Assembly: GCA_023267655.1 (NCBI GenBank)
Contig: JAHFMV010000003.1
Location: 16,522-80,521 of the forward strand
Origin: Candidatus Kaiserbacteria bacterium
GTDB taxonomy: Bacteria; Patescibacteriota; Minisyncoccia; Phycocordibacterales; UBA2100
Reading direction: 5' to 3'
DNA length: 64,000 bases
In this document: positions 2,695-64,000 of the stretch, in pieces
Layout of the letters: each line of letters opens with the position of its first letter
How positions within the stretch are numbered: position 1 is the first letter of the stretch
The notes under the pieces: model-generated
What the model was told of the DNA's origin: nothing
The model's input: only the letters and a program-made list of their open reading frames with translations
Database searches by the model: none
Made by a program: the position numbers and the translations under genes

Positions 2695-2731
2695 ATGGAT
2701 TTCCTTGAAGCTTGACGCTCGTAGCTCGAAG

Positions 2732-3382
2732 CTACTTTAGATTCCTCAGCGCGGCTGTTGAGCGCAGGGTGAATTGGTTCGGCAACCGATTCGGATTGAT
2801 GTTAACGACGATCGTCGCTTGGACGAACCGCACTTCCGCGATTTTCGAGAGATCATTCATGAGCGTGCCATTCTGATCATAATACTGGAACATCAAGACA
2901 TTCTGTTCCGTGTTGCGCACATTGTCAGAAACGGTTGAGATCGTCTCCGGATTGGTATAAACCGGCGGATCGCTTGACGGATCAATGACACCGCGCATCA
3001 GAGAATTTCCTTGGAGAAAGAACCGCACTTGCTCGAGAAACGCATCGTCGTCAATGTCCGCATAAAATGAAAAGCTCGAGGTCGCCATCGAAATGATCGG
3101 CCACGCGCCATTCGAGGAATACGCGGCCTCGCGAATGGTCTTGATCATGCTCTCCATGCCGTGTTGCCCCGACGTGATCGCCGCGCCTTGCTCGACGGTG
3201 TACGTATTGGTGCGATAAAACGCTTGTACGGTTTGCGTGATCGCGAGCATGATCATCGTCGTGATCGCGACCCACACCATCGTTTCGAGCAAACTGATGC
3301 CACGGGAAGCGCGGCAGCCACTAGCGACTAGCCAATAGCCACTAGGGGAATGCTTGGATGCTTTTTTGATTTTGGATTTCAT
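2732..3382 (-). CDS. type IV pilin-like protein with prepilin-type leader (RG|ISLLETMVWVAITTMIMLAI)
   Basis: Class III signal-peptide motif G-ISLLE followed by a hydrophobic helix. The unusually long 28-aa leader is partly encoded by the TAGCCACTAG repeat. Confidence 0.6.
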   Translation of the reverse strand: MKSKIKKASKHSPSGYWLVASGCRASRGISLLETMVWVAITTMIMLAITQTVQAFYRTNTYTVEQGAAITSGQHGMESMIKTIREAAYSSNGAWPIISMATSSFSFYADIDDDAFLEQVRFFLQGNSLMRGVIDPSSDPPVYTNPETISTVSDNVRNTEQNVLMFQYYDQNGTLMNDLSKIAEVRFVQATIVVNINPNRLPNQFTLRSTAALRNLK

Positions 3383-3407
3383 ACTAGTGGCTAGTCGCTA
3401 GTGGCTA
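3317..3407. repeat. inverted pair of family-A repeats (agccactagcgactagccaatagccactagg 3317-3346; ctagtggctagtcgctagtggcta 3384-3407) bracketing the pilin start codon at 3380-3382
   Basis: Read directly from the sequence; same motif family recurs at 11480, 22043, 33670/33774, 40515/40553, 55017/55085. Confidence 0.7.
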
Positions 3408-5650: not shown

Positions 5651-5740
5651 GACTGTCCTCCATCGATTGCCTATTTCCAATGTCCACACTAACCCTACCC
5701 GAACGGTGCACAAAACTCAACACAACCACTAAGGAGCGAT

Positions 5741-5863
5741 GGCGTGAAAAATGCTTCGAGAGAACATCGCGCAGCAGATAGTAATACGTGATGTAATACA
5801 GTAGTAGATGTGACGTAAAAGCCACTGATCAGTTCGTGTTCGGGTTGAAGCATTTTTCACGCC
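5741..5863. repeat. copy 2 of the ~110-nt conserved element, closed by 17-bp perfect inverted repeat ggcgtgaaaaatgcttc / gaagcatttttcacgcc
   Basis: Core near-identical to 1052-1135; lies directly 3' of the pilC stop (5877). Confidence 0.7.
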
Positions 5864-5876
5864 ACCGCGACACGCT

Positions 5877-7133
5877 CTAGATATTGTCCGAGAGTTGGTA
5901 GATCGGGCTGATCATCGCGACTGCAAAGAAGCCGACGGCTGCACCGATCGCAAGCATAAGGAATGGCTCAATGATCGTCGACATGTCTTTCGTCTTCCGA
6001 TCCACTTCGTCTTCGTAAAAGACTGCAAGCTTTTTCATCATCTCGGTCAACTGCCCTGTCTCTTCGCCGACCGCAATCATCTCGCCCACAAATGCCGGGT
6101 ATAAATGCTCCGCGCGCACAAAAGCGCTCGAGAGCGGCTCACCTTTTGAAATATTTTCCTTCGCCTGCCCGATGACTTTCTTGAAATAATGATTCTGCAC
6201 AACGTCTTGCACGATCTCGAGCGAGGTCACCACATCCACGCCGCTCGAGAGAAGCGACGCGAGTGTCCGCGCCGTGCGCGCCGCATTCACCTCTTTCACG
6301 ATCGGCCCAATGATCGGAATGTGCAAAAAGACGAAATCCTTTGCGCGCCCGCCCGCTTCAGTGCGAAGCGCGGTATAGATGCCCCCGACGCCGATTATGA
6401 GAATTGAGAACGCAAGAATCGTGTACTCGACGAGGAAATTCGATACCGCGATGATTGCGCGGGTCGAAGCCGGCAGTTGCGCCCCCATTTCCTTAAACGT
6501 CGAGGCAAGCGTCGGAACAACATTGATCATCATAAAGGTACCGATGCCGAGAATCGCACAGACGATGATGATCGGATAGAGCATCGCACCACGAATTTTC
6601 TTCTTCAAGACATACATCCGCTCCATCTGGTCGGAGGTGACGACGAGTGCTTGCGGCATCTCACCGCCTTCCTCGCCCGCGCGCACCATCGCGACAAACA
6701 GTTTGGAGAAAACATGCGGGAATTTTGCCGCAGCAGAATGCAGTGTCTCACCGCGGCGCACCGCGCCCGATAATTCCGCAACCACGCTGCCGAGCCGCGG
6801 GTTTTTCGTCTGGCGCTCTATGACCGCAAGTGCTCGCGCAAGCGAAAGTCCCGCAGAGAGCATCGCGCCCAAGTTGCGCGAGAAGAGAATCTTCTCGTAT
6901 TCCGGCACCGTCGTTATTTTTGAATTCCAATACTGGAGGCTGAAGACGCCGTGCCTCTTTTCTTCGTCAACCGCGAGGATGCGGCCGCCTTCATGCCGCA
7001 CTATTTCGTACAACTCAAACCGATCGCGCGCCTGCGCGGTCCCTTTATATACTTCCCCGTCGCTTTTTTCCGCCGTGTATGAAAATCTCGCCACAGAATC
7101 AGTATACCGTATTCCGTATACAGTATTCCGCAA
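5877..7133 (-). CDS. pilC: type IV pilus assembly platform protein PilC (GspF family)
   Basis: Two GspF-type repeats and three TM segments; N-terminus ARFSYTAEKSDGEVYKGTAQARD typical of PilC. The first ~11 codons (TTG start at 7133) overlap an inverted-repeat arm, so the true start may be the GTG near 7094. Confidence 0.8.
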   Translation of the reverse strand: MRNTVYGIRYTDSVARFSYTAEKSDGEVYKGTAQARDRFELYEIVRHEGGRILAVDEEKRHGVFSLQYWNSKITTVPEYEKILFSRNLGAMLSAGLSLARALAVIERQTKNPRLGSVVAELSGAVRRGETLHSAAAKFPHVFSKLFVAMVRAGEEGGEMPQALVVTSDQMERMYVLKKKIRGAMLYPIIIVCAILGIGTFMMINVVPTLASTFKEMGAQLPASTRAIIAVSNFLVEYTILAFSILIIGVGGIYTALRTEAGGRAKDFVFLHIPIIGPIVKEVNAARTARTLASLLSSGVDVVTSLEIVQDVVQNHYFKKVIGQAKENISKGEPLSSAFVRAEHLYPAFVGEMIAVGEETGQLTEMMKKLAVFYEDEVDRKTKDMSTIIEPFLMLAIGAAVGFFAVAMISPIYQLSDNI

Positions 7134-7543
7134 AATGCACTATGTACGAATTCGATTTGGCGCCGTGCGGATTAATCCCGTCAACATTTGCGACACGGTT
7201 TCGGCTTTCTTTTCAAGTGCAGTAAAAGAATCGCGGGAAATATATTCCAAATCGCGTGCGATGAGTAACTGGCTCCTCAACTCTGAAAGTGAAGCGAGCG
7301 AAGTCGTATAAAAATTGATCTTGTCATTTTTCGTCTGCCGCACGAATCCCTCTGCAATATTTGAAGTAACAGAAACTGCGGCGCGGCGGATCTGACTGGT
7401 TAATCCGAAAAGTTCATCTTTTGGAAAAGTCTTGCTGGCTGTATATATCTCAAGAACAAGCGAGTGACCTTCTTGCCAAACACGTAAGTCCGTAAAACGC
7501 TGGATCATGGTGCGGTATACGGAATACTGTATACGGTATACGC
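7100..7543 (-). other. cassette: four-helix-bundle gene bracketed by ~31-bp inverted repeats (cagtataccgtattccgtatacagtattccg 7100-7130; gcggtatacggaatactgtatacggtatacgc 7512-7543) in the pilC-pilB intergenic position
   Basis: Arms are reverse complements over about 20 of 22 core positions. The right arm abuts the pilB stop (7544); the left arm overlaps the annotated pilC start. Confidence 0.65.
7140..7508 (-). CDS. four-helix-bundle protein of the 23S rRNA intervening-sequence protein family
   Basis: MIQRFTDLRVWQEGHSLVLEIY...AVSVTSNIAEGF matches the family's conserved N-terminal pattern (compare paralog at 54115). ORF-track start (GTG 7547) is encoded by the repeat arm, so ATG at 7506-7508 is preferred. 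Confidence 0.7.
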   Translation of the reverse strand: MIQRFTDLRVWQEGHSLVLEIYTASKTFPKDELFGLTSQIRRAAVSVTSNIAEGFVRQTKNDKINFYTTSLASLSELRSQLLIARDLEYISRDSFTALEKKAETVSQMLTGLIRTAPNRIRT

Positions 7544-9286
7544 TCACTCCGTAATCACACGCAACACCTCTTCAATAGTAGTAACTCCTTGCGAGGCTTT
7601 AAAAATCCCGTCTTCGATCATCGTGAGCATTCCCTCGCTGCGTGCTTGTTTTTCAATTTCATCCGCGGTCGCATTTTTCATCACATGCTCCTTAATGGTT
7701 GCAGTAACCGGGAGGACTTCATAGATACCGCGACGACCCGCGTACCCTTCCGGACACTCTGCCGTCGGCCCTGGTTTATAAAACGGCACGGTTTTCCAGG
7801 TCGCATTTGCGGCGACGATCTTCTCGTCTTTCAGTGCCTTGAGGACGACGCCGGCATCCAACGTGCTCTCAAGCTGCGTCTGTTCGTCGCGCGAGAGTTC
7901 GTACTTTTCGTGGCTTGGGCAGAGCATGCGCACGAGGCGCTGTCCTATGACAACGCGCAGAGTCGAGACGAGGAGGAACGGCTCGATGCCCATATCGAGG
8001 AGACGCGGGATGGCTCCTGCCGCAGAATTCGTGTGCAAAGTAGAAAGCACAAGGTGGCCGGTGAGCGCCGCATTGATCGCGAGTGATGCGGTTTCCTTAT
8101 CACGAATTTCCCCCACCATAATGATGTCGGGATCTTGGCGCACGAGCGAACGCAACCCGTTGGCAAACGTAAATCCAATATCCGGGCGCACCTGCGTCTG
8201 GTTCACCCGCTTCATTTGATACTCAATCGGATCTTCGACCGTGGAAATATTCACATCCGGCGTATTCAAAAGATCGAGAATCGTATAGAGCGTGGTGGAT
8301 TTGCCGGCGCCGGTCGGACCCGTCGTTAAGATGAGGCCGGTCGTTTGTTTCATCGCGCCATGCATTTGCTCCAAACCTGATCCGTGGAATCCGAGCGCTT
8401 CGAGCGAAAAGCCCGCGACATTATCACGCAAGAGGCGCATCACGATCTTTTCGCCGTAGTACGTCGGCAAAATAGAAACACGAAACGAAATTTTCTCACC
8501 GCCCGCTTCGACGCCAAAGCGTCCGTCCTGCGGCAATCTTTTTTCATCGAGCCGCATGTTGCCGAGGACTTTAATGCGCGCAGTGATTGCGGGCGCAGCG
8601 TGTTTCGGCAATTCCATCGCATCATGCAAGATGCCGTCGATGCGGTAACGGATGAGGAGCGATTCTTCGAGAGGCTCGATATGGATATCAGATGCATTTT
8701 GCGCGTTCGCGTGGCGCAAGAGCGTATCAACGATGCGCACAGCACTCACTCCCTCCGCCATCTGTCGCAAGTCTTCTTGCTTTGCGTCCGCACTTCCTGT
8801 TTTCGCAAGCGCATCGGTCTCGCGCTTGATGACATCGCCGAGATTGTCTTTGAGACCACGCTGGTACTGCTTGAGTGCGAGTTTCACCGACGCAGCGTCA
8901 GTGAGACGCGGCAAGATTTTCAAATGCGTTTTCTTCTTAATGAAATCGATCGCGGCGAGATCGTCAGTATCGAGCATCGCCACCTCGAGCTGCTCGTCTT
9001 TGTGGCTGTAGGCAATGATCGAATTGTGCCTTGCGACCGGTTCGGGAATGAGGGAGAGCGTTTCAAATGGAATCTGCTGCCCTGCGAGCGAGACAAACGG
9101 GATGCCGAGGATGTATGCGTAGGTGCGACGCAGTTCGTCCTCGCCAATTTTATTCTCCGCGATGAGAATATCCCCAATCGGTTTCCCGCGCTCTTTCGCC
9201 TCACGCTCGGCGGCCTCAAAATCTTTGTTCGAGATGAGCCCCGCGTCGGCGAGAAACGATTTTAAATGGGTATCAGAAATGTACAT
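7544..9286 (-). CDS. pilB: type IV pilus assembly ATPase PilB (GspE family)
   Basis: N-terminal GspII-type domain, Walker A GPTGAGKSTTLY, Walker B and His-box regions; 580 aa. Confidence 0.9.
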   Translation of the reverse strand: MYISDTHLKSFLADAGLISNKDFEAAEREAKERGKPIGDILIAENKIGEDELRRTYAYILGIPFVSLAGQQIPFETLSLIPEPVARHNSIIAYSHKDEQLEVAMLDTDDLAAIDFIKKKTHLKILPRLTDAASVKLALKQYQRGLKDNLGDVIKRETDALAKTGSADAKQEDLRQMAEGVSAVRIVDTLLRHANAQNASDIHIEPLEESLLIRYRIDGILHDAMELPKHAAPAITARIKVLGNMRLDEKRLPQDGRFGVEAGGEKISFRVSILPTYYGEKIVMRLLRDNVAGFSLEALGFHGSGLEQMHGAMKQTTGLILTTGPTGAGKSTTLYTILDLLNTPDVNISTVEDPIEYQMKRVNQTQVRPDIGFTFANGLRSLVRQDPDIIMVGEIRDKETASLAINAALTGHLVLSTLHTNSAAGAIPRLLDMGIEPFLLVSTLRVVIGQRLVRMLCPSHEKYELSRDEQTQLESTLDAGVVLKALKDEKIVAANATWKTVPFYKPGPTAECPEGYAGRRGIYEVLPVTATIKEHVMKNATADEIEKQARSEGMLTMIEDGIFKASQGVTTIEEVLRVITE

Positions 9287-9294
9287 AGGGATGA

Positions 9295-9362
9295 GGTTCT
9301 AGGTTCTAGGTTCTAGGTTCTAGGGAATCCGAAGTCCTCTGCAACCTTGCACCTTAAACCTG
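9295..9362. repeat. tandem heptamer (GGTTCTA x ~4.5) plus a family-B-like segment, 9 nt upstream of the pilB start codon
   Basis: gaggttctaggttctaggttctaggttctaggg then ctctgcaaccttgcaccttaaacctgacacctaa. On the pilB coding strand this reads CCTAGAACCT x4 immediately before the ATG. Confidence 0.65.
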
Positions 9363-9456
9363 ACACCTAATTTGTCATGCGCAGATTGATTATAGCAAGA
9401 TTTGGATGTAAGGTTGCGGCAGTCGCCACAGGGTCGCGACAAACAGGGAGATTCAC

Positions 9457-12769: not shown

Positions 12770-12973
12770 TTCAAAACCGACGCCGCGGAAAAGTGTCCGC
12801 TCGCGGCGCTCGGCGGTGTTCCTCCCACCCGAACACGAACTGATCAACGGATCGAATATCACATCTACTACTGTACGTCATCACGTATTGTTATTTGCTG
12901 CGCGATGTTCTCTGGGAGGAATACCGCCTATCGCCGTCTCGCTCCCTCTTCCGTCGGCGTTTGAGGTTTTGAA
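12770..12973. repeat. copy 3 of the ~110-nt conserved element (core 12815-12925, reverse-complement orientation on the plus strand) with extended imperfect outer inverted repeat
   Basis: Reverse complement of 12828-12912 aligns with cores at 1052-1135 and 5759-5845. Lies 7 nt after the nusA stop and before a terminator-like hairpin. Confidence 0.65.
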
Positions 12974-15125: not shown

Positions 15126-15157
15126 ACCTAGAACCTAGTCCCTAGAACCTAACACCT
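15126..15157 (+). repeat. family-B leader motif (cctagaacctagtccctagaacctaacacct) ending 6 nt before the ATG at 15164
   Basis: Same CCTAGAACCTAACACCT module as at 54486, 55850 and, on the minus strand, 9295-9325. Confidence 0.6.
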
Positions 15158-15163
15158 ATCTTT

Positions 15164-26536: not shown

Positions 26537-26569
26537 ATTCCCAAGTAAGGCGACCAGCCGTATTGGCAG

Positions 26570-26675
26570 AAGGCAAAAAATGCTTCACGAGGGTCTTCGC
26601 AGCGGCGTCGGGCGCGAGACCGAGCGCTGGCGCAGCAGCGCCAGATAGCGACCCGAGGGAAGCATTTTTTGCCTT
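26570..26675 (+). other. long hairpin: 17-bp perfect inverted repeat aaggcaaaaaatgcttc / gaagcattttttgcctt enclosing a 72-nt GC-rich interior
   Basis: Shares the AAAAATGCTTC...GAAGCATTTTT closing stem and the GCGCAGCAG / CAGATAG words with the ~110-nt 3' element family; lies 34 nt after the cca stop. Confidence 0.5.
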
Positions 26676-26703
26676 TTGCCACAAACATACAAAGCAAAAG
26701 CCG

Positions 26704-33404: not shown

Positions 33405-33671
33405 ATGCTGACGAAGCGAAAGAAGCAAAACGAAATCGGCAAGGTTAAGCGCCACGACACTGATACCGGCTCGCCGGAGGTGCAAGTCGCGCTCTTGACC
33501 CGCCGTATCGAAGAGCTCTCGGCACATTTGGATAAGAATCGTAAGGACAAAAGCTCCCGTCGCGGACTTTTGGGGCTCGTGGCTGATCGCCGCAAGCATT
33601 TGAAATACCTTGAGTCTACCAACAAGCGCTCGTATTCAGCGCTCACGAAGAAGCTCGGATTAAAAAAATAG
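33405..33671 (+). CDS. rpsO: 30S ribosomal protein S15
   Basis: Full-length S15 pattern (KRHDTDTGSPEVQVALLTRRIEELSAHL...RRGLLGLVADRRKHLKYL). Confidence 0.9.
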   Translation: MLTKRKKQNEIGKVKRHDTDTGSPEVQVALLTRRIEELSAHLDKNRKDKSSRRGLLGLVADRRKHLKYLESTNKRSYSALTKKLGLKK

Positions 33672-33800
33672 CGACTAGTGATTAGCCACTAGGAAATGCG
33701 GGCTCTCCAAATCGTCAGCTATAATCTGCATAGAGCAGATTTTTAGAAGCATTATCAGTTTTTATATTGAATTCACTAGTGGCTAATCGCTAGTGGCTAA
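33670..33800. repeat. inverted pair of family-A repeats (agcgactagtgattagccactagg 33670-33693; cactagtggctaatcgctagtggctaa 33774-33800) with an 80-bp AT-rich spacer, ending 6 nt before the ATG at 33807
   Basis: Read directly from sequence. Confidence 0.7.
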
Positions 33801-40514: not shown

Positions 40515-40575
40515 TTAGCCACTAGCCACTAGGGGAAAGGCGGACTGAATTTCCTATTGGCTAGTGGCTAGTGGC
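40515..40575. repeat. inverted pair of family-A repeats (ttagccactagccactagggg / cctattggctagtggctagtggc) with 17-bp spacer
   Basis: Read directly; ends 24 nt before the ATG at 40600. Confidence 0.7.
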
Positions 40576-40599
40576 TTTTTGTTCATGTATTATAGGGCG

Positions 40600-51235: not shown

Positions 51236-53458
51236 ATGCACACACTCACAACACTACGCACATCGCCGATTGCAAGACTCCTCGTCGTCATCTTCTTGTG
51301 CATGACGCTTTTCAGTCTCTCGCTTCCGATGGTGGTGTTTGCGCAGACGACAGACGATGGTTCGGGTACAGTGGCTCCGACTCCCGCGGGGTCGCAGACA
51401 CCGCCTACGGATCGTTGTGCGTGGTATAGCTCGTGGTCGAGTCCAGTTACGTGTATTTTTCGCGCACTATTTGTCGGAAGTTCCTCGGGTTTAATCTGGT
51501 TAACAGGCTGGATCCTTGGAATTGCTGGCGTGCTTTTTAATGCAGCGCTTGAATTTACGACGCAGGGATTTGATTCGCAGATTTACGCAAAAATACAAGG
51601 AGGCATTGAGGCCGTTTGGACGGCGTTTCGCGATATCGCCAATATCCTCATTATTGGAATGTTCACGTTTACCGCACTCACCATGATTCTCGGCATTGAA
51701 TCGTTCAACGCAAAGAAAATGGTCGCGAAAGTTCTCCTCATCGCCGTTCTCATCAACTTTAGTCTCCTATTCACGCGACTTGTCATTGCGTCATCGAATT
51801 TTGTCGCGGTACAATTTTACAAGGCTGCGAAATTCGACACGAGTACCTCTCTAGCATCAGCGCAATCGGTAGCTGGCCAAACATCCCCATACAATCAATT
51901 TTCTGCGGGTATTTCTGGAAAATTTGCACAATTGATGGGGGTTGCTGGGTTTAGTGATTCTGCCGGGGCGCTCTGGGAAATTGCGCAAAAACAAGACAGT
52001 GGCTTACTTGCACTTGGCCAGGGTGTCTTGACCGCATTGATTTTTACCGGAGCGGCATTGGTATTTCTCTACGCATCATTTCTCCTTATCGCGCGAGCAA
52101 TTCTTTTTGTGCTGCTACTCATAACGTCTTCATTGGCATTTGCAGCGCACTTACTGCCCAGCAAGATCACCATGGGATACGATGGTTGGAGCGCGTGGTG
52201 GAGTTCTCTCCTTAAAAACGCGGTCTTCGGCCCGATGCTACTTATCCTTCTGTGGGCAACGATCCAACTAGGTGAGGGTATACGAGCAACAAACAGTACT
52301 TTGGGATCGCTTCTTGTTGATCCCGCAAAAGGAGGTGGTATCAATGCGCTCTTCAGTTATCTCCTTATCCTCGGCATGTTGTACGCTTCAATTAAGATCG
52401 CAAGTATGTTTGCAAATAAGGTTGGTGGATTCAATTGGGCAGCTGTTGCACCAGCCTGGACAGCAAACAAGATTATGGGATTTGGGGGATTTGGTGCTCG
52501 ACAAACAGTGGGTCGAGGTGGCGCATGGGTGGATAAAACCTTGACATCCCGTGCGGCTGCCCAGCCTGACACTTTCGGCGGTAAAATGCGCCGCAGTTTG
52601 CTTCAAATTGGAGCTTCAGCCGGAGCTGCGGCCACTAAACGCGACTTTAACTTGGCAAAGACAAAAGTCGGTGCAGAGCTCGGTGCCGTAAGTGGCCTTA
52701 AGATAGGGAAAGAAAAGGCGCTCGGTGGATTCGATGGAACAGAAAAGCGACGTGCAGAAGCATTCGCAGAACAGGGTGAAAAATTCGCGAAAGCGGCGAA
52801 AGATTTGAGCGCTGATACGAAAAAACAAATTGCGTTGCAAGGTAATCCTGAACTTCGCGATCGCTCAGAACGCGCAGACGCAAACCACGGACAAGCGGAT
52901 CGAGATAACCAAGCAAATCAACAAAGGGCGATGCAGCTTGCTGACGATCATCGTCGCGCAGTTCAAAATGAGGAGACGTTACGCACGAACGTTGAGCAAT
53001 TACGTTTGGACCGACAACAAATGGAACAGGACGTCCGTGCTGGCAGGCGACAACAATCAGAACTTGATGAGCAAGATAATCGTATTCGTGATACTCAATC
53101 TCGCATCATCGATTCGAGACAACGAAATTCTACGCTCCAGAGACAAGTTGATGATGCTCGGCGTACGGCAAATGAATCTCAACAAGCATTCACTCAAGCC
53201 GCGAGAAACGTGCAGAATGTTACGAAAGAGATTGAGGATCGCTTTAGCGCAGGTGGATTTGCCGAAAATCTCGCTTATAATCGCTTGAGCAACACGCTGC
53301 TGAAGCCCGCTGACGCAAAAGATGACGCATTGGCCCAGAGAGCACGTGCGGCAACTGGCGATCGTGCCCGCAAAAAACGTTTGCGTGACGCGTTAGCAGA
53401 CGACGTTCGAGACACGACGAGAGAATTCCAACCGCCACCAGCCCCAACAAACCATTAA
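51236..53458 (+). CDS. VirB6/TrbL-like polytopic membrane protein with C-terminal charged coiled-coil extension
   Basis: At least 7 hydrophobic segments in the first 400 aa, then a 300-aa R/Q/D/E-rich region; position and topology fit VirB6/TrbL. Confidence 0.5.
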   Translation: MHTLTTLRTSPIARLLVVIFLCMTLFSLSLPMVVFAQTTDDGSGTVAPTPAGSQTPPTDRCAWYSSWSSPVTCIFRALFVGSSSGLIWLTGWILGIAGVLFNAALEFTTQGFDSQIYAKIQGGIEAVWTAFRDIANILIIGMFTFTALTMILGIESFNAKKMVAKVLLIAVLINFSLLFTRLVIASSNFVAVQFYKAAKFDTSTSLASAQSVAGQTSPYNQFSAGISGKFAQLMGVAGFSDSAGALWEIAQKQDSGLLALGQGVLTALIFTGAALVFLYASFLLIARAILFVLLLITSSLAFAAHLLPSKITMGYDGWSAWWSSLLKNAVFGPMLLILLWATIQLGEGIRATNSTLGSLLVDPAKGGGINALFSYLLILGMLYASIKIASMFANKVGGFNWAAVAPAWTANKIMGFGGFGARQTVGRGGAWVDKTLTSRAAAQPDTFGGKMRRSLLQIGASAGAAATKRDFNLAKTKVGAELGAVSGLKIGKEKALGGFDGTEKRRAEAFAEQGEKFAKAAKDLSADTKKQIALQGNPELRDRSERADANHGQADRDNQANQQRAMQLADDHRRAVQNEETLRTNVEQLRLDRQQMEQDVRAGRRQQSELDEQDNRIRDTQSRIIDSRQRNSTLQRQVDDARRTANESQQAFTQAARNVQNVTKEIEDRFSAGGFAENLAYNRLSNTLLKPADAKDDALAQRARAATGDRARKKRLRDALADDVRDTTREFQPPPAPTNH

Positions 53459-53462
53459 TTAT

Positions 53463-54077
53463 ATGTCCGACGATAAGAAAACTTTGGATGTTGAACTAAA
53501 GGAACGCTTTGCTCAACTTCCTAAAGTTGTACAAAATGCAATTACCTCAGCAGAGGTTGAAAAATTACTGCGGAGCTTGGCTGATACTCAAAAATTACAT
53601 TTGGATCAGTGGCAATCCTTGGAAAACGAAGTCATGATGGCGTTACTGGGCGTACAACCCATTGGAAATTTACAAGAAAACATCGGTAAGGAAGTTGGGG
53701 TGAGCGCTGATGTAGCTAAAACGCTCGCAGAAAATATCAACAAAATCGTCTTCGAACCCATTCGCCAAGAACTCGAACGCCAGCTAGAGCATCCGGAGGC
53801 GCAAGCGAAGCAGGTGAGTACCATTGAGGCGGCGCGGGCAGAGACGCTTGCGGGGGCGCAGCCGGCAGCCGGGAGCCAGCAGCCGGGAGCTAATTCAGAA
53901 TCCGCTCCGAGCTCCGGGCTACAGGCTCCAAGCTCGGTTCTACCGGCAACACCACCATCGCTCGTGCCTGACATAAAAGTCACGCGCCCCTCTGAATCAA
54001 CCGCCTATAAACCGGGCGAACCATCAACACAGCGCGCCGCGGTGCACGACGACCCGTATCGGGAGCCGCCACTCTAG
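53463..54077 (+). CDS. hypothetical protein (204 aa)
   Basis: ORF only; its stop overlaps the left arm of the IVS cassette. Confidence 0.4.
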   Translation: MSDDKKTLDVELKERFAQLPKVVQNAITSAEVEKLLRSLADTQKLHLDQWQSLENEVMMALLGVQPIGNLQENIGKEVGVSADVAKTLAENINKIVFEPIRQELERQLEHPEAQAKQVSTIEAARAETLAGAQPAAGSQQPGANSESAPSSGLQAPSSVLPATPPSLVPDIKVTRPSESTAYKPGEPSTQRAAVHDDPYREPPL

Positions 54078-54510
54078 GTGACAGGTTCCAGGTGTCAGGT
54101 TTTAGGGAAAATACATGGATAAAATTCGATCGTACAAAGATCTTATTGTTTGGCAGAAAGCGATTGGCGTTGTCACTGACGTGTATCTAACGACCAAGAA
54201 ATTTCCTTCAGAAGAGCGATTTGGACTTTCTTCACAAATGCAACGCGCGGCTGTTTCGATAGCTGCAAACATTGCAGAAGGACACGGGCGTGGAACACGA
54301 AGTGACTATGCTCACTTTTTGGATATGTCAAATGGCTCGGTATCCGAATTGGAGACGCTCTTCATCATTGTCAGAAAACTATCATATTGTTCGGACGAAC
54401 AATGTAGTAAAATAGAAGGACAGTTACATGAAGTTGGGAAGATGCTTGGATCTCTCCGAAGTAAGTTACGTGTTCGCCCCTAGCACCTAGAACCTAACAC
54501 CTGGAACCTA
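54074..54510 (+). other. cassette: four-helix-bundle gene bracketed by family-B inverted repeats (aggttccaggtgtcaggttttagg 54084-54107 versus cctagaacctaacacctggaacct 54485-54508)
   Basis: Arms are reverse complements at ~20 of 22 positions. The insert 54108-54484 is almost exactly the 369-bp gene. Confidence 0.7.
54115..54483 (+). CDS. four-helix-bundle protein of the 23S rRNA intervening-sequence protein family (second copy)
   Basis: MDKIRSYKDLIVWQKAIGVVTDVY...AAVSIAANIAEGHGR parallels the 7140-7508 paralog. Confidence 0.7.
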   Translation: MDKIRSYKDLIVWQKAIGVVTDVYLTTKKFPSEERFGLSSQMQRAAVSIAANIAEGHGRGTRSDYAHFLDMSNGSVSELETLFIIVRKLSYCSDEQCSKIEGQLHEVGKMLGSLRSKLRVRP

Positions 54511-54515
54511 ATTCT

Positions 54516-55022
54516 ATGCAATTCCAAGTTCCCCAGTTCATTGAGGTCGAGGACAAGATCTTTGGGCCTCTCACCTTCAAACAATTCGTCTACATCGCAG
54601 GAGGCGCCGGCTGCGGCTATCTGCTGTGGCGCGTTCTTCCTATTTACCTCGCCGCCCCCCTTATCGCCGGCGTCGTCGGCCTCGGCGCGGGGTTGGCCTT
54701 CTTCAAATACAACGGCCAGCCCTTTATCCTCGCCCTCGAGCATGGTTTTTTCTTCTTTGTACGCAGCAAGCTCTACCTCTGGAGCAATGAAGTGCGCGAT
54801 ACTACGAAAAAGAAAGATCTCGCGGCACAAATAGCCGCTCCCGCAGCACAGATTTACGTCCCGAAGCTCTCCGACGGCAAGCTGCACGAGCTCGCGTGGA
54901 GTCTCGACATCAAAGAGCGCATCGCAGGAGGAACTGCCGATGACGACGAGCGCGCAGACAGCTCACCACTGAAGGGCATCATCGCGCCCGTCCGTACCGC
55001 GCGTGAGGCGCTCATTAACTAG
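54516..55022 (+). CDS. PrgI-family (VirB3-like) T4SS membrane protein
   Basis: MQFQVPQFIEVEDKIFGPLTFKQFVYIAGGAG followed by two TM helices matches the PrgI family N-terminal pattern. Confidence 0.55.
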   Translation: MQFQVPQFIEVEDKIFGPLTFKQFVYIAGGAGCGYLLWRVLPIYLAAPLIAGVVGLGAGLAFFKYNGQPFILALEHGFFFFVRSKLYLWSNEVRDTTKKKDLAAQIAAPAAQIYVPKLSDGKLHELAWSLDIKERIAGGTADDDERADSSPLKGIIAPVRTAREALIN

Positions 55023-55115
55023 CCAATAGCCACTAGGTATTTGCCACTAGAAAATGCATATGAATCCAAAAATTTCCTTAATGTATTGGCCAGTGGCTAG
55101 TCGCTAGTGGCTAAT
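55017..55115. repeat. inverted pair of family-A repeats (taactagccaatagccactagg ... attggccagtggctagtcgctagtggctaat) ending 10 nt before the ATG at 55126
   Basis: Read directly; the spacer contains CATATGAAT..TTCC, also seen in the 55820-55850 spacer. Confidence 0.7.
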
Positions 55116-55125
55116 AACTATTTTT

Positions 55126-55800
55126 ATGCCTGAAACCGTCACCTCAACAAAGCCGACCAGCAAATCGACACAGCAATTTGTGCCGGTTTCCGAAGTGCGC
55201 GACGGTATCTTGATCCTCAAGGACAAGAGCCTGCGTGCGATCCTTCTTGCGTCGTCGATCAATTTTGCGCTTAAATCTGAAGACGAACAGACGGCGTTTA
55301 TCGTGCAATTCCAAAACTTTCTCAACTCGCTCGACTTTTCGTGCGAAATTTTCGTGCAATCGCGCATGCTCGACATCCGCCCGTACATTGCATCCCTCGA
55401 GGTCGCCTACAAAGGGCAGCTCGACGACCTTATGCGCATCCAAATTCGCGAATACATCGAATTCATCAAGAGCTTTACCGAGGCCGCGAACATCATGACG
55501 AAAAATTTCTTCGTCGTCGTCCCGTATTCGTCGACGGCGATTTCGCTTTCCGGCAGTGGCGGCATCGCGGGGAAATTACCGTTTGGACGCAAAAAAAATA
55601 CGGCAGAGGATGCGAACCGTTCGTTTGAAGAGCAGGTCTCACAGCTTGAGCAACGCATTTCGATCGTGCAGCAGGGTCTCGTGCGCTGCGGCGTACGCAC
55701 CGTGCAGCTTGGAACCGAAGAGGCGATCGAACTGATGTACAAACTCTTCAACCCGGGCGAAGAAGGGAAGCCGATGACGCTGGATGCAGGTGCCAGGTGA
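55126..55800 (+). CDS. VirB4/TrsE-like N-terminal domain encoded as a separate ORF
   Basis: FVPVSEVRDGILILKDKSLRAILLASSINFALKSEDEQ resembles the N-terminus of Gram-positive-type VirB4 ATPases; stop codon lies inside a family-B repeat arm. Confidence 0.45.
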   Translation: MPETVTSTKPTSKSTQQFVPVSEVRDGILILKDKSLRAILLASSINFALKSEDEQTAFIVQFQNFLNSLDFSCEIFVQSRMLDIRPYIASLEVAYKGQLDDLMRIQIREYIEFIKSFTEAANIMTKNFFVVVPYSSTAISLSGSGGIAGKLPFGRKKNTAEDANRSFEEQVSQLEQRISIVQQGLVRCGVRTVQLGTEEAIELMYKLFNPGEEGKPMTLDAGAR

Positions 55801-55879
55801 CAGGTTCCAGGTTACAGTAAAATATAAATACAATACATCATATGAATTTCCTAGAACCTAACACCTGGAACCTGTAACC
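55794..55879 (+). repeat. family-B inverted pair (ggtgacaggttccaggt 55796-55812 / acctggaacctgtaacc 55861-55877) with 48-nt AT-rich loop, separating the two VirB4 ORFs
   Basis: 17-bp stem with one mismatch; forward arm CCTAGAACCTAACACCTGGAACCT ends 5 nt before the ATG at 55882. Confidence 0.65.
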
Positions 55880-55881
55880 TT

Positions 55882-58800
55882 ATGGCTTTATTGGATCTTT
55901 TCAAAAAATCTTCGGTCCCCGCGGCGACGGTGCTGCCGGTCCTTCCGGAAGAAATCTACCGCACTGGCGTCCTCGGCCTCCAGGACGTGATCGCACCGCA
56001 CGCACTTCGCGTCTCGCCGCGCGAGCTCGACCTTGGCGAAAAAATCGCGCGCACGTTTTTTGTGATCTCATACCCGCGCTTCCTCACGACGGGGTGGTTT
56101 GCGCCGATCATCAACATGGACAAGGTGCTCGACATCGCGATTTTCATCCATCCGATGGACACGAACGAAATGCTGCGCAAATTTCAGAAAAAAGTCGCCG
56201 AGGTGCAAAGTCAGATCGCGACGCGTGAGGAAAAGGGGATGGTGCGCGACCCAATGCTCGATACCGCATATCAAGACCTCGAAAAATTGCGCGACTCTCT
56301 GCAACAAGCGCAGGAACGCATTTTTGATGTCGGACTCTACCTCACGATCTACGGCTCGAGCCGCGAAGAAATAGATAAGGTAGAGAGCGAAATCCGCTCG
56401 ATCCTCGAGAGCCGCCTCGTGTACATCCGCCCGGCACTTTTCCAGCAAGAACAAGGCTTCCGCTCGACGCTCCCGATTGCGACCGATGAATTAAACGTCC
56501 ACACGAAACTCAATTCGGCGCCGCTCTCGTCCATCTTCCCGTTTATTTCATTCGACCTAACGTCCGACAGGGGAATCCTTTACGGCATCAACCGCCACAA
56601 TTCGTCACTTATTTTGTTCGATCGATTTTCTTTGGAGAATTATAATTCGGTCACTTTCGCAAAGTCGGGAGCAGGTAAGAGCGTCTGCTACGAAGAGCCC
56701 GTTTTGACACGTGAAAGCGGAATCATACGTTATGCGCCAATTGGTCAAGTGGTGGAAAAAACTATTAAAAAACATGGTTGCAGAAAGATTGACGACGAGT
56801 TAGAGGGAGTTATCGATCCGGGTATTGAAGTGTTCAGTTTTGATCAAGACATGCGGGGGCGTTGGAGTAAAGTATCGGTCGCTGCACGAAAAGATGCCCC
56901 AGATACATACTACGCATTCAGGACAAAAAGCGGCCGCGAGGTAACAACTACTGCTGATCACAACATGCTAGTCTTACGACGCGGGAAAGTTATTGCCGCG
57001 AAAAGTGAAAATGTGAAAGAGGGAGAGTATATTCCTCTGCCGCGCAGCGTGCATCCATCCCTGCACTCCCCCCGTCATATAGGATCTAGCCTCTTGCCGG
57101 TAACAGAACATCTCAGTTCTGTCCTTGGTTGGATCGCAGCAGAAGGGACTATCGCGAAACGCTCGATCATTATCAGCAACACCGATCAGGAATCACTGTC
57201 ACACATTGAAAATGAATGTCGAGCCCTCGGTTTTTCCTGCGGCAGCAACAAGCGGTGGGTTGCCATTTATGGCAAACGTGTCTGTGAACAGCTAAAAGCC
57301 CTTGGCGCAACGGGAAAATCCGGTACTAAAACAGTCCCCGGATTTCTTTTTAACACGTCGCGCGATGTGGTCGCCTCATACCTGCAAGCGTATTTCGAAG
57401 GTGATGGCGGTGTAGAAAATCACGAAATTACTGCGCTTTCAAAGTCGAAAGAGCTGATATCAGGGCTTTCGTATTTGTTGTACTACTTCGGCATTATTGC
57501 GCGGATACAGAAGCGGCAGAAGAAATACGCGAAGACGGGACGCAAAAGGACATTCTGGATGCTTAGCATTTCAGGTCAGGATAATATCCGGAAATTCCAA
57601 GAGCACATCGGCTTTATTTCGACGCGAAAAAAGGAGGCCCTCGCGAAAATCGCCGTTAAAAACGGAAATACCAACTGCGATATCGTGCCGGGACTACAAC
57701 CGCTTGCGAAAGAGCTTGAACTCCTTTTCGATACGCAGCTGTCGGACATATCCGACTTCTCCGCGCTCAAGCAGGGTCACGGCCTCTCGCCGACTCGGCT
57801 CGGAACACTTGTCGATACAATGGAGGCGCGCGTGCGGCGGTTCAAGGACTTGTATCCTTTCATGCAGAAATTGCAGGATCTGCCGACTGTTGAAGCGATT
57901 ATCAAAAAAGCTGATGGAGATCGCGATTTGAATCACAGGCTTATTGAAACAATGAGCAGCTCATGGTTTACGGTCAAGCAAGGAATGCCACCACGAACGA
58001 AAAATGCGCTGAAAATCTTTGAAACTGCAGGTGTCGAAGCTCCAAAAACCATCGACGAATTAAAGGGGATGGTGGAGAGCGGCGTCTCGAATTTGCGCGT
58101 CCCGAGGAGCGATTTTGATGAGTACCTTACGAGATCCCTGCATGGTACTCGCGACAATTCGTCGTACGAACTCCTACGCACCGCATCACAATTTATTTTT
58201 TGGGAGTACCGCCGCACGCTACACAACTTGCATCGCGTCGAAGAAATCATCGCTATGTTTAAGACGCTCGTGAACGCCGACCTTTTCTGGGATCCGATTG
58301 TTTCTATCGTGAAAAAGGCCAACAAAAAAGACAAGTATGTATACGACCTCACCGTTGACGACGAAGTGTTCCTCGCGGGACACGGCGGCATGTTCGTGCA
58401 CAATTCATATACGACGAAGCTTGAGATTCTGCGCTCTTTAATGTTCGATACGGAAGTCATCGTCATCGACCCGGAACGCGAATACGAATATCTCGCGACG
58501 ACCGTCGGCGGCCGCTACTTCAACATTTCACTCTCCTCCGAACACCATATCAATCCGTTTGATCTCCCCATCCCACGTGAAGACGAGAACCCCGGCGACA
58601 TTTTGCGCAACAACATCATTACGCTCGTTGGCCTCTTCCGCATCATGCTCGGCGGACTTACGCCAGAAGAGGACGCCGTCATCGACAAGGCGATTACGGA
58701 AACCTACGCACTCAAAGACATTACGCAAGACGCGAATTTCGCCTCTATCGAGCCGCCGCTCCTCTCCGACTTTGAACTGGTCTTAAGCGGCATGGAAGGA

Positions 58801-59685
58801 TCAGAATCACTCGTCGCGCGCCTTTCGAAATATACGAAAGGCACGTGGTCGGGATTCATGAACCGCCCGACCAACGTCGATATGAACAAAAAACTTACGG
58901 TCTTTTCCGTGCGCGATATGGAAGATGATTTGAAGCCGGTCGCGATGTACATCATTACACACCACATTTGGAACACGGTAAGGAAAGAACTGCGAAAGCG
59001 CCTGCTTGTGATCGACGAGGCGTGGTGGATGATGAAATCGCAAGACACGGCGAGCTTCCTTTTCGGTATTGCAAAGCGCGGCCGTAAATACTATCTCGGT
59101 CTCTCGACGATTACGCAGGACGTCAACGACTTTCTCACCTCACCGTACGGCGCGGCGATGATCACGAACTCATCAATTCAGCTCCTTCTGCGCCAATCAC
59201 CGACGTCGGTTGATCTTGTACAAAGCACGTTCAAATTGACTGATGAAGAAAAGTATTTGCTCCTCGAATCCGACGTGGGGGAGGGGATTTTCTTCGCCGG
59301 ACTGAAGCATGTTGCCATCAAAGTCATCGCCTCGTACACCGAAGACCAAATCATTACCTCCGATCCGTCGCAAATCCTCGCTATCAAGAAAGCAAAAATG
59401 GATCTCGCTTCTGCAAACGATACAAGCGCACCTGCCGCACCACGACAGAGCGCCGCTGATATCTTAAAAGCCGCGGCCATGAAGGAATCGAGCGGTATCG
59501 CGCAGCAGGCCGCTACCGAGGCACTACCAACGCAAACACCAGCGGCAAGCACAGAATCCGACAATCCGCTTCCACCGCCCCCAACACCGACTCCTACTCC
59601 ACCGCCCTCGCCTGTCGCGCCTGCACCTGCGGCACCCACCGCGCCCTCGCTTCCACCCGAAGCAAATCCTGATCGTCCGGTATGA
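55882..59685 (+). CDS. VirB4/TraE-like T4SS ATPase (extein ~694 aa) interrupted by an in-frame 573-aa intein
   Basis: Walker A FAKSGAGKS immediately before the intein; C-extein SYTTKLEILRSL...LLVIDEAWWMMKS (DEAW Walker-B-like) and conserved VirB4 C-terminal region; Pro-rich tail. Confidence 0.8.
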   Translation: MALLDLFKKSSVPAATVLPVLPEEIYRTGVLGLQDVIAPHALRVSPRELDLGEKIARTFFVISYPRFLTTGWFAPIINMDKVLDIAIFIHPMDTNEMLRKFQKKVAEVQSQIATREEKGMVRDPMLDTAYQDLEKLRDSLQQAQERIFDVGLYLTIYGSSREEIDKVESEIRSILESRLVYIRPALFQQEQGFRSTLPIATDELNVHTKLNSAPLSSIFPFISFDLTSDRGILYGINRHNSSLILFDRFSLENYNSVTFAKSGAGKSVCYEEPVLTRESGIIRYAPIGQVVEKTIKKHGCRKIDDELEGVIDPGIEVFSFDQDMRGRWSKVSVAARKDAPDTYYAFRTKSGREVTTTADHNMLVLRRGKVIAAKSENVKEGEYIPLPRSVHPSLHSPRHIGSSLLPVTEHLSSVLGWIAAEGTIAKRSIIISNTDQESLSHIENECRALGFSCGSNKRWVAIYGKRVCEQLKALGATGKSGTKTVPGFLFNTSRDVVASYLQAYFEGDGGVENHEITALSKSKELISGLSYLLYYFGIIARIQKRQKKYAKTGRKRTFWMLSISGQDNIRKFQEHIGFISTRKKEALAKIAVKNGNTNCDIVPGLQPLAKELELLFDTQLSDISDFSALKQGHGLSPTRLGTLVDTMEARVRRFKDLYPFMQKLQDLPTVEAIIKKADGDRDLNHRLIETMSSSWFTVKQGMPPRTKNALKIFETAGVEAPKTIDELKGMVESGVSNLRVPRSDFDEYLTRSLHGTRDNSSYELLRTASQFIFWEYRRTLHNLHRVEEIIAMFKTLVNADLFWDPIVSIVKKANKKDKYVYDLTVDDEVFLAGHGGMFVHNSYTTKLEILRSLMFDTEVIVIDPEREYEYLATTVGGRYFNISLSSEHHINPFDLPIPREDENPGDILRNNIITLVGLFRIMLGGLTPEEDAVIDKAITETYALKDITQDANFASIEPPLLSDFELVLSGMEGSESLVARLSKYTKGTWSGFMNRPTNVDMNKKLTVFSVRDMEDDLKPVAMYIITHHIWNTVRKELRKRLLVIDEAWWMMKSQDTASFLFGIAKRGRKYYLGLSTITQDVNDFLTSPYGAAMITNSSIQLLLRQSPTSVDLVQSTFKLTDEEKYLLLESDVGEGIFFAGLKHVAIKVIASYTEDQIITSDPSQILAIKKAKMDLASANDTSAPAAPRQSAADILKAAAMKESSGIAQQAATEALPTQTPAASTESDNPLPPPPTPTPTPPPSPVAPAPAAPTAPSLPPEANPDRPV
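56686..58404 (+). mobile_element. intein with LAGLIDADG homing-endonuclease domain inserted in the VirB4 P-loop
   Basis: Block A CYEEPVLTRESGIIRYAPIGQVV (Cys1 at 56686), block B TTTADHNMLV, DOD motifs LGWIAAEGTI and LQAYFEGDGGV, block F/G KYVYDLTVDDEVFLAGHGGMFVHN followed by Ser+1 (58405). Confidence 0.75.
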
Positions 59686-63295: not shown

Positions 63296-63413
63296 CAGAT
63301 AATTTTCAATTCTCAATTTTCAGTGAATTTTCAATGTTCCAATGTTTGAAAATTGATTCATTCGAACTTGAATGAAAATTTGAAATTGATAATTGATAAT
63401 TGATAATTGAAAA
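63296..63413. repeat. AT-rich repetitive spacer (TTTTCAAT words, GATAATTGA x3 tandem, palindrome cattcgaacttgaatg) between yidC and jag
   Basis: Read directly from sequence. Confidence 0.6.
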
Positions 63414-64000
63414 TTAGTCTGATTTCTTATCCCCAAATCGTCGTCCCATGAAAAGTTCCTGCCCAATCATAAAGAGGTTTGAGGTCGTCCAGTAGAGAGG
63501 TACGGCGGCAGAAACCGTAAATGCAATGCCCGCGACGATAAGCGGGAGGATGTAGCGCGCCTGGAGGTCGAAACTCTTGGCCATGTCATTTGAAAACGAT
63601 TGCTCTACGGGCGACGTGGCCATTTGGTTGCGAGGTCCCATGGAGAGACGCGCGTAGGTCAGTTGCGTGAGACCCGCGAGTGCAGCAAGAAGAATGCTTT
63701 TCTTTCCCATGTCGATAAGTCCGAGAAACTCCATGTTAAACATTTTCGGGACCGGAACGAACGAATACAAAAGGTCGGGATTGACGTGGGGAAGACCGCC
63801 GCGGCCGAAGACCCAATAGAGGCCGAGGAGGATTGGGAATTGGATGAGAATGAGAAAAAATGAAGAAAACGGCCGAATGCCGCGTTCTTTGTAGAGGGCA
63901 AAAATTGCTTTTGCCTGTTCGTCTTGTTTATCTTTGTATTTTGTTTTAATCGCTTCAATGTTCGGCGCAATCGCCTTCATCGCCATTTGCGTGCGGATCG
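63414..64000 (-). CDS. yidC: membrane protein insertase YidC, partial (N-terminus beyond window end)
   Basis: Conserved YidC/Oxa1 core ...IKTKYKDKQDEQAKAIFALYKERGIRPFSSFFLILIQFPILLGLY...; the reading frame stays open to position 64000. Confidence 0.8.
   Translation of the reverse strand, partial: IRTQMAMKAIAPNIEAIKTKYKDKQDEQAKAIFALYKERGIRPFSSFFLILIQFPILLGLYWVFGRGGLPHVNPDLLYSFVPVPKMFNMEFLGLIDMGKKSILLAALAGLTQLTYARLSMGPRNQMATSPVEQSFSNDMAKSFDLQARYILPLIVAGIAFTVSAAVPLYWTTSNLFMIGQELFMGRRFGDKKSD

Follow-up and report, generated by a model that had tools for sequence, protein, structure and literature searches.

A probable ORF-less hairpin cassette of the intervening-sequence type at the stop–start junction between two VirB4 genes of a Candidatus Kaiserbacteria bacterium

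A short inverted-repeat element situated between two VirB4-type genes was analyzed in a stretch of 64,000 nucleotides from a Candidatus Kaiserbacteria bacterium (contig JAHFMV010000003.1 of assembly GCA_023267655.1, positions 16,522 to 80,521), referred to here as the window and used for all of the numbering. The element occupies positions 55785–55880 and lies between the gene for a VirB4 N-terminal-domain (N-domain) protein and the gene for a VirB4-type ATPase. The features of this locus, including the open reading frames (ORFs), are the following:

55126–55800, forward strand: stand-alone TraC-like/VirB4 N-terminal-domain gene, 224 aa, recognized by NCBIfam matches to the N-terminal part of fused VirB4.
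55785–55811, forward strand: 5' arm of the element, tandem heptamers GCAGGTG CCAGGTG ACAGGTT CCAGG of the N4-Y-A-G type, with AG phase-locked every 7 nt.
55812–55849, forward strand: A+T-rich loop, retaining a leader of the IVP type (AAAATATAAATAC) and a start codon.
55829–55834, forward strand: TACAAT, a hexamer resembling a −10 box, 7 nt ahead of the ATG in the loop.
55842–55877, forward strand: mini-ORF MNFLEPNTWNL, from the ATG in the loop through the 3' arm, its TAA ending 4 nt before the ATPase ATG at 55882.
55850–55880, forward strand: 3' arm, CCTAGAA CCTAACA CCTGGAA CCTGTAA CCT, of the C-T-R-N4 type, spanning the initiation region of the ATPase gene.
55882–59685, forward strand: VirB4-type ATPase gene, whose 1267-aa product contains an intein (Pfam P-loop_TraG, Intein_splicing and LAGLIDADG_3).

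The inverted repeat was recovered by a repeat search as arms at 55795–55812 and 55863–55880 (18 nt, 94% complementary, with 50 nt between them), and a more permissive scan lengthened these arms to 55787–55811 and 55850–55874 (25 nt, 84%). Folding of the RNA of 55775–55895 gave an interrupted stem of ~25 pairs (−38.65 kcal/mol, z = −3.9, with none of 200 shuffles as good). All three approaches agree on the repeat reported in a preliminary description of this DNA, of which only the right arm had to be moved: its string acctggaacctgtaacc corresponds to 55863–55879 and not to 55861–55877, and the ATPase ATG comes 2–3 nt after it, not 5. The 48-nt stretch between the arms (55813–55860) is A+T-rich as described, at 77% A+T in a window of 52% G+C, and includes TATAAAT, TACAAT and CATATGAAT. 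The TGA of the N-domain ORF (55798–55800) falls within the 5' arm, which also supplies the last five codons (DAGAR), while the relatives terminate instead in ...PMxLxQQ.

The arms are not unique to this junction. With at most one mismatch, the arm core AGGTTCCAGGT occurs 11 times in the window against 0.59 copies expected, and the PF05635 (IVP) gene at 54115–54483, 1.3 kb upstream, is flanked by arms of the same family, as had been proposed: the right arms (54486–54509 and 55850–55873) are identical at 24 of 24 positions and the left arms are 91% identical. By contrast, the loop of the element at 55785–55880, of 38–48 nt, contains no PF05635 ORF, and the 11-codon mini-ORF is its sole reading frame.

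The nature of the two flanking genes was established by profile searches. The 224-aa ORF matched conju_CD1110 (positions 2–118 of 752), VirB4_plasma (96–233 of 894) and the TrsD/TraD family, the VirB4-family matches being N-terminal only; PF26593 (TraC-like) is annotated on every homologue of this protein, and a PDB sequence search with it matched no solved structure. The ATPase ORF matched conju_CD1110 at 330 bits, and its intein-free sequence matched the VirB4 structure 4ag5 (E 1e-42). The first 267 aa of the ATPase correspond to positions 186–429 of CD1110 and the remainder to 429–733, the two ORFs being colinear without overlap on fused VirB4 profiles (conju_CD1110 2–118, 186–429 and 429–733). 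Judged from these profiles, the two ORFs together equal one VirB4 and their junction is a domain boundary, which is where the preliminary description had placed the element. The ATPase gene was also seen to carry an intein with a LAGLIDADG homing endonuclease (56683–58407, ~aa 268–842) beside the Walker A motif (GAGKS), absent from two relatives with proteins of 658–705 aa (L007 and L019). Since hairpin cassettes are present as well, two kinds of selfish element share one gene neighborhood.

It had been suggested that the element splits virB4, that is, that a once-continuous gene was cut by an insertion which supplied the stop and the new start. The stop within the 5' arm, the start 2 nt past the 3' arm and the position at a VirB4 domain boundary would all suit such an event, and cassettes can in principle donate starts, given that a loop ATG appears to act as a gene start elsewhere in the window (gene 2732–3382). 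The relatives, however, speak against it. Eighty loci from Kaiserbacteria/Paceibacterota genomes were fetched (designated below by L numbers), 77 of them analyzable at the N-domain/ATPase junction, and in all 77 the N-domain and the ATPase are separate ORFs, never fused, 45 of them with a gap of 1–21 nt free of heptamers. Moreover, the best 120 homologues of the N-domain protein, all from Patescibacteria, are stand-alone proteins of 200–230 aa. A separate N-domain protein is also found in Gram-positive plasmids, where the split VirB4 (a TrsD/TraD-like protein plus the TrsE/TraE ATPase) likewise has a ~200-aa VirB4 N-terminus protein directly upstream of the ATPase. The match of the 224-aa ORF to that family (NF041427) had an E-value of 3e-5 but was under the family cut-off (23.8 vs 200 bits); unlike the TrsD/TraD proteins, the Patescibacteria protein is PF26593 TraC-like, and the likeness concerns the split, not the hairpin. 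An ancient insertion followed by clean loss would fit the relatives without heptamers, but a virB4 cut by the element is highly improbable. With two separate genes in 77/77 relatives, the split is ancestral: the N-domain and ATPase genes are anciently separate and presumably translationally coupled, and the cassette sits in their stop–start junction.

This junction, termed J3, is polymorphic for insertions. The stop-to-ATG gap measures 1–21 nt in 45 loci, 70–98 nt in 25, 140–175 nt in three and 411 nt in three. The short gaps, typically CAATAATATGGCA, show no heptamer trace. About 20 of the 70–98-nt inserts share the build of the window element, with a heptamer 5' arm that overlaps the upstream gene at its end, a loop rich in A+T and a complementary 3' arm followed by a conserved (C)TATGG start, the heptamer sequence varying by genome. 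The 411-nt inserts (L007, L019 and L023) contain a 117-aa PF05635 protein (E 2e-14) between AAGTNNN arms, and the J3 junction of L073 is occupied by an ORF-less element with these same AAGTNNN arms. The suggestion that the window element is an 'empty' member of the IVP stem-loop family is thus upheld by the shared arms, by IVP genes at the same junction in three relatives and by the ORF-less counterpart in L073. The presence of J3 elements is scattered over the neighbor-joining protein tree (23 parsimony changes vs 24.7 for random labels), and compensatory double changes were observed in 12 of the 15 consensus stem pairs when 20 J3 elements were aligned.

Other variation was noted at J3. The gene coordinates of the nearest relatives, P0002 and P0003 (N-domain proteins 98 and 94% identical), give gaps of 95 and 104 nt compared with 81 nt in the window, the 14-nt difference between P0002 and the window being equal to two heptamers. 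The inserts of 140–175 nt are of another type (L013:719-895, L075:2582-2749 and L030:4663-4804), with non-heptamer inverted repeats of the form AACCCCRCC-AAATTTTS ... followed by ACTAAGAG..CTCTAA; L047, near-identical to L013, lacks the insert. Inserts of 70–93 nt without clear heptamers were found in L015, L029, L055, L002 and L032, several of them with TACAAT(G), and may be decayed cassettes or independent promoter-bearing spacers.

The arms follow a defined grammar. Period 7 is specific, with 11 tracts vs none in the shuffle and 0–1 for periods 6, 8 and 9. Across the 20 aligned J3 elements, an invariant AG recurs at 7-nt intervals along the 5' arm and is paired with CT in the 3' arm. A phase-locked AG marks the 5' arm, read in sense, in 40 of 43 elements; AG exceeds CT in 35 elements, and CT exceeds AG in none. 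Therefore, the unit is N4-Y-A-G in the 5' arm and C-T-R-N4 in the 3' arm, strictly co-oriented with transcription. Two other measures of polarity were set aside: the 5' arm shows only a weak G>C or purine asymmetry (18/26 and 12/17), so the phase-locked AG was used instead, and ATG vs CAT in the loops (24 vs 23) is uninformative owing to CATG/CATATG palindromes.

A stable hairpin between two genes could also be an intrinsic terminator or attenuator. This is scarcely credible here, as no U-tract follows the stem (TTATGGC does), the terminator scan was empty at 55785–55890, the downstream ATG is only 2 nt away and the two genes are tightly coupled in relatives. In the search of the window against Rfam, no rRNA and only four tRNAs were detected, and no match reached the gathering score at the hairpin. 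A known RNA family was rejected for it, the matches being sub-threshold and of the generic long-hairpin kind (WsnRNA46, 29.9 vs 65.3 bits, and miRNA precursors).

The loop retains traces of a coding cassette. In full cassettes the arm is followed by a short A-rich leader (GAAAATAC and similar) and then by ATG(A/G)A..., and the empty loops open with the same leader, often keeping ATGAAT (AAAATAC...ATGAAT). Because the empty loops keep both the IVP leader and the start, an origin of the empty form by internal deletion of a full cassette is supported. The first ATG of the loop begins an ORF of 6–21 codons that finishes −1 to 18 nt before the downstream ATG in 17 of 21 empty elements, the same placement being seen in 5 of 42 control frames (Fisher p ~1e-7, calculated on elements that are not independent).

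An internal promoter in the loop had also been considered. On that reading TACAAT would serve as the −10 box, transcription would start at or near the loop ATG, the mini-ORF would be leaderless and transcription of the ATPase gene would be decoupled from that of the upstream genes. TA[CT]AAT is present in the sense orientation in 15 of 41 unique loops and in the antisense orientation in one (shuffles: mean 4.1, maximum 11 in 1000), the spacing TACAAT-N7-ATG recurs in the window, L014, L027 and L074, and TACAAT was also found in the non-heptamer J3 inserts of L015, L029 and L055. On the other hand, the hexamer is missing from 26 of the 41 loops, the full cassettes are too tight for a promoter before the IVP ATG, and no −35 box was found. 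A scan with the sigma-70 consensus, from which that of Patescibacteria may differ, yielded no promoter on the forward strand of 53000–57000. A full sigma-70 promoter was consequently rejected; what stands of the promoter proposal is the sense-biased −10-like box, and a loop acting mainly as a promoter seems doubtful.

The third role proposed earlier, that of a processing site, is supported only by homology to the RNase III-cut intervening sequence (IVS) of Coxiella 23S rRNA. The element might, by this analogy, be purely an RNase III site that uncouples the stability and translation of the two cistrons, the mini-ORF being irrelevant. A stem of ~25–30 bp is long enough, RNase III cuts the Coxiella IVS in vitro within its stem, which carries heptamer repeats, and strict co-orientation with transcription suits a role at the RNA level. 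The internal mismatches of the stem, the lack of G:U enrichment and the upstream stop codon inside the stem count against this, and the non-random end points of the mini-ORFs would be left without explanation. We regard a role limited to processing as a tentative possibility.

The element belongs to a population of similar structures in the window, listed here:

54076–54509, forward strand: full sibling cassette at junction J1, with 5' arm 54076–54109, IVP gene 54115–54483 (PF05635, E 1e-37) and 3' arm 54486–54509.
55017–55123, forward strand: ORF-less cassette of the TAGCCAC heptamer family at junction J2, between the PrgI-like and N-domain genes, with loop mini-ORF MNPKISLMYWPVASR.
3316–3407, reverse strand: ORF-less cassette of the TAGCCAC family, loop ATG at 3382.
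2637–2733, reverse strand: ORF-less cassette of the AGCGTCG family, loop ATG at 2694 in frame with the downstream gene.
7100–7547, reverse strand: second full cassette, IVP gene 7140–7547 (PF05635, E 3e-38), with GTATWCC-type arms.
9292–9370, reverse strand: hairpin with a short loop, AGGT heptamer family, located at a gene junction.
15126–15160, forward strand: solo 3'-type arm, CCTAGAA CCTAGTC CCTAGAA CCTAACA CCT, immediately upstream of the ATG at 15164.
33669–33799, forward strand: ORF-less cassette of the TAGCCAC family, loop with TATAAT.
40516–40576, forward strand: short-loop cassette of the TAGCCAC family.
63300–63416, reverse strand: ORF-less hairpin of the AATTNTC heptamer family, without phase-locked AG.

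At least 10 heptamer hairpins of several families are thus present in 64 kb, nearly all of them at stop–start junctions of co-directional genes, and the window and the 80 loci together (700 kb) gave 65 raw detections, including a few artefacts (N-run or cross-element). Loop lengths are bimodal, being either 18–83 nt or 350–512 nt with an IVP gene inside. The J1 cassette is placed between a 204-aa gene and the PrgI-like gene, and at least 16 relatives likewise have an IVP gene at J1; J2, whose window element folds at −41.4 kcal/mol (z −4.3), is filled in seven relatives, L073 having an IVP gene there. Junctions J1, J2 and J3 are all recurrently occupied across relatives. A strict heptamer-inverted-repeat test was passed by 11 of 19 IVP genes and by 6 of 286 other genes of 90–230 aa in the Kaiserbacteria loci. 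Full-length relatives carry only PF05635/bAvd-like four-helix bundles and not a transposase. Whole elements also recur: the J2 and J3 elements of L043 are 89% identical over arms and loop, and the loops of the window elements at 3316–3407 and 55017–55123 share ATGAA(A)TCCAAAA. As far as such sequence identities can tell, the elements are copied as whole units.

These copies bear on a different origin, in which a regulatory hairpin would have been born in place through 7-nt slippage and inverted duplication of local sequence, being neither a mobile copy nor derived from an IVP cassette. Several observations fit this: the first heptamer often extends the native gene end (e.g., CCAATAG CCATTAG), AAAATAC is common to J3 loops across arm families, which suggests one old origin, and gap length varies among close relatives (81, 95 and 104 nt). 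Nevertheless, the same heptamer families occur within one genome at unrelated junctions (in the 64 kb, four occurrences of TAGCCAC and four or five of AGGT), whole elements have been duplicated together with their loops (J2 and J3 of L043; window 3316 and 55018), full IVP versions with the same arms are found at the same site, and the architecture around IVP genes of other phyla is identical. An origin in place is therefore unlikely.

Additional observations were made on these and neighboring features. The loop and 3' arm of the 3316–3407 cassette would encode a 28-aa leader of the prepilin-like gene 2732–3382 (reverse strand): no canonical in-frame start other than the loop ATG at 3382 precedes its prepilin motif RG/ISLLE, and one heptamer with TAT for TAG keeps the frame open. 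In L031, L057 and L005 a small G+C hairpin with a T-run, such as GCTCGGCTGACAGCCTCGGCTTTTT in L057, lies between the IVP stop and the 3' arm; it looks terminator-like and, if so, would be polar on the downstream gene. The 204-aa gene has a period-7-like tract within its coding sequence at 53857–53929 (GCAGCCGGCAGCCGGGAGCCAGCAGCCGGGAGC), probably a coding repeat of low complexity rather than a cassette arm. Moreover, a second repeat family was detected at 1028–1162, 5736–5868 and 12804–12936 (reverse), with a conserved ~87-nt core (GAGAGAACATCGCGCAGCAGATA...CAGTTCGTGTTCGG) and inverted arms of 22–24 nt that differ among copies; its predicted fold has an energy of −58.5 kcal/mol (z −6.7), and Rfam gave no match to this family. 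At 26564–26681 the arms resemble those of this second family and the core is different.

Taken together, the observed anatomy, family membership, insertion polymorphism, stem covariation and strict polarity argue that the element at 55785–55880 is probably an ORF-less IVS-type hairpin cassette placed in a stop–start junction and, in the simplest view, derived from a full IVP cassette by internal deletion. Its 5' arm would have taken the place of the last few N-domain codons and would provide the stop, the 3' arm stopping 2 nt short of the conserved ATG. Once transcribed with the operon, the arms are expected to pair as a stem of ~25–30 bp that closes the insert and juxtaposes the upstream stop and the downstream start. 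Because such a stem would close on itself, cassettes would be tolerated both at rRNA helix tips and at junctions otherwise coupled by 1–5 nt. By comparison with the Coxiella IVS, RNase III probably recognizes the stem as a substrate, and cleavage would remove the loop without re-ligation. Translation might pass the insert by a relay, which is suggested by the clustering of the mini-ORF ends before the downstream ATG: a ribosome terminating inside the 5' arm would open the stem, and translation of the 11-codon mini-ORF would unwind the 3' arm and terminate 4 nt before the ATPase ATG.

Several points weigh against this reading. Neither a target-site duplication nor a transposase or other mobility function was found, and the comparison of filled with tight J3 junctions gave no clear duplication, the edges being blurred where the first heptamer merges into the gene end. 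The N-domain stop lies 13 nt inside the stem, such that a cut low in the stem would leave a non-stop mRNA, and the relay cannot be general, since in full cassettes the IVP stop is 30–70 nt from the downstream ATG. The elements that enter the mini-ORF statistic are not phylogenetically independent, and mismatches in the stem lack the wobble bias expected of RNA (G:U 13 vs A:C 18 on the sense strand). Finally, the native gene end frequently runs into the first heptamer without a clear boundary (CAATAG...), and one motif is common to J3 loops whose arms differ, so that a single old insertion with fast arm turnover and many losses is not separable from repeated insertion; after a single old insertion, the arms may have turned over by slippage or gene conversion.

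Similar cassettes were found well beyond the Patescibacteria. The IVP loci examined from other taxa had heptamer arms in nine of nine cases and lay between co-directional operon genes, and heptamer-armed IVP genes were recorded in Bacteroidota, Planctomycetota, Alphaproteobacteria and phage-like contigs. In Bacteroidales/Flavobacteriales it is sdhA and sdhB that flank the IVP gene, with up to ~10 GCCATTA/AGGCATT units, and others were detected in Pirellulaceae, in Brevundimonas and in a thiolase operon. In IMG/VR about 13 of 19 IVP loci have such arms, and a phased AG is present in 11 of the 13 arms typed from the other-taxa and IMG/VR loci. In the Bacteroidales/Flavobacteriales loci L082, L083, L085 and L086 (~1400–1950) the flanking genes are those of the succinate dehydrogenase/fumarate reductase flavoprotein and iron-sulfur subunits, and the heptamer arrays beside the PF05635 gene are long (GCCATTA/AGGCATT, xxxATAG); several Bacteroidota share this sdhA/sdhB position. 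IVP genes located between cas genes (PMC3936711) and in rRNA insertions of the Candidate Phyla Radiation agree with this architecture.

IVS elements have been known since 1990, and we know of no accepted origin for them and of no function for their conserved ORF. The 23S IVSs of Coxiella burnetii and Leptospira likewise have terminal inverted repeats forming a long stem and PF05635 cargo in the family, with a sporadic distribution and a mobility that was long suspected and never explained (PMC4990558). In Coxiella, three tandem GACAGAT heptamers of strain-variable copy number lie directly before the S23p ATG, and RNase III cuts within the 28-bp terminal stem (PMC4990558). Read in register GACAGAT is N4CAG, so the window element and the classical IVS share detailed architecture. 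Unlike the 23S IVSs, inserted in helix 9, 25 or 45, the window element lies between two protein-coding operon genes and, unlike the ORF-bearing ones, it has lost its ORF, while the sibling at 54076–54509 and those of L007, L019 and L023 keep PF05635; nothing comparable to its loop mini-ORF and TACAAT has been described in rRNA IVSs. The ORF-less 23S IVSs of Salmonella, Yersinia and Campylobacter are likewise short stem-loops at sites where RNA continuity is dispensable (PMC4990558), although they are located in rRNA, and the comparison with them is by description only.

The short tandemly repeated repetitive (STRR) sequences of Cyanobacteria are intergenic heptamer direct repeats. Comparable intergenic direct repeats of the heptamer TAACTGA have been described in Beggiatoaceae, Cyanobacteria and Bacteroidetes (PMC4679880); these likewise consist of tandem 7-nt units with 7-nt-step indels and end a few nt before a start codon, some of them overlapping the end of the upstream ORF, and their presence differs between close relatives. 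In register TAACTGA is CTGATAA, the C-T-R-N4 form of the 3' arm, to which the solo arm at 15126–15160 is comparable; this tract and another at L060:4669-4686 resemble TAACTGA-type direct repeats. TAACTGA and STRR repeats have been described as direct only (with one inverted case) and without a link to PF05635 or hairpins, whereas the window element has two inverted arrays. From the shared register we infer that these repeats may be identical with cassette arms. Miniature inverted-repeat transposable elements (MITEs) and repetitive extragenic palindromes (REP), including bacterial interspersed mosaic elements (BIMEs), are likewise short, multi-copy, palindromic, ORF-less forms that coexist with longer ORF-bearing relatives in intergenic positions of compact genomes. 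Unlike MITEs and REP, the window elements lie precisely in the gap between a stop and a start, strictly in the direction of transcription, and their arms repeat at period 7; their cargo is a 120-aa four-helix bundle, and they lack a recognizable target-site duplication. No transposase or REP-associated tyrosine transposase (RAYT) was associated with them in the 64-kb window, whose ORFs were not all scanned. A literature search, incomplete and therefore no proof of absence, returned no paper that links heptamer arms to IVP genes outside rRNA or states a general rule.

These results describe an operon-borne ORF-less element of the IVS kind with a defined heptamer grammar and point to a wider pattern that is apparently undescribed in the literature searched. 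The locus shows an IVS-like cassette inside operon mRNAs, with phased YAG heptamers, strict polarity, stop–start placement and both full and empty forms, and operon-borne cassettes make hundreds of natural insertion/deletion comparisons available. For annotation, such junctions should not be taken for gene disruptions; C-termini can be encoded by an arm and starts can lie in a loop, and both are easily mis-set. The finding may also connect three literatures without mutual citation, namely those on rRNA IVSs, on 'four helix bundle' genes in cas and sdh operons and on intergenic heptamer repeats.

The protein TRAP binds spaced NAG triplets and, by analogy, a pentameric Avd-like IVP might bind four or five phased YAG units. 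As a tentative and, as a whole, still doubtful proposal, PF05635/IVP cassettes with (N4-Y-A-G)n/(C-T-R-N4)n arms would form one cross-phylum class of polar, hairpin-closing selfish elements. Such a class would colonize transcript sites where RNA continuity is dispensable, the tips of rRNA helices and the stop–start junctions of operons, and would be removed or neutralized at the RNA level by RNase III together with a translational relay. Its ORF-less derivatives and solo arms would explain intergenic heptamers such as the STRR of Cyanobacteria and the TAACTGA repeats of Beggiatoaceae and Bacteroidetes, and the cassettes could donate start and stop codons to the genes that they border, occasionally remodeling or splitting them.

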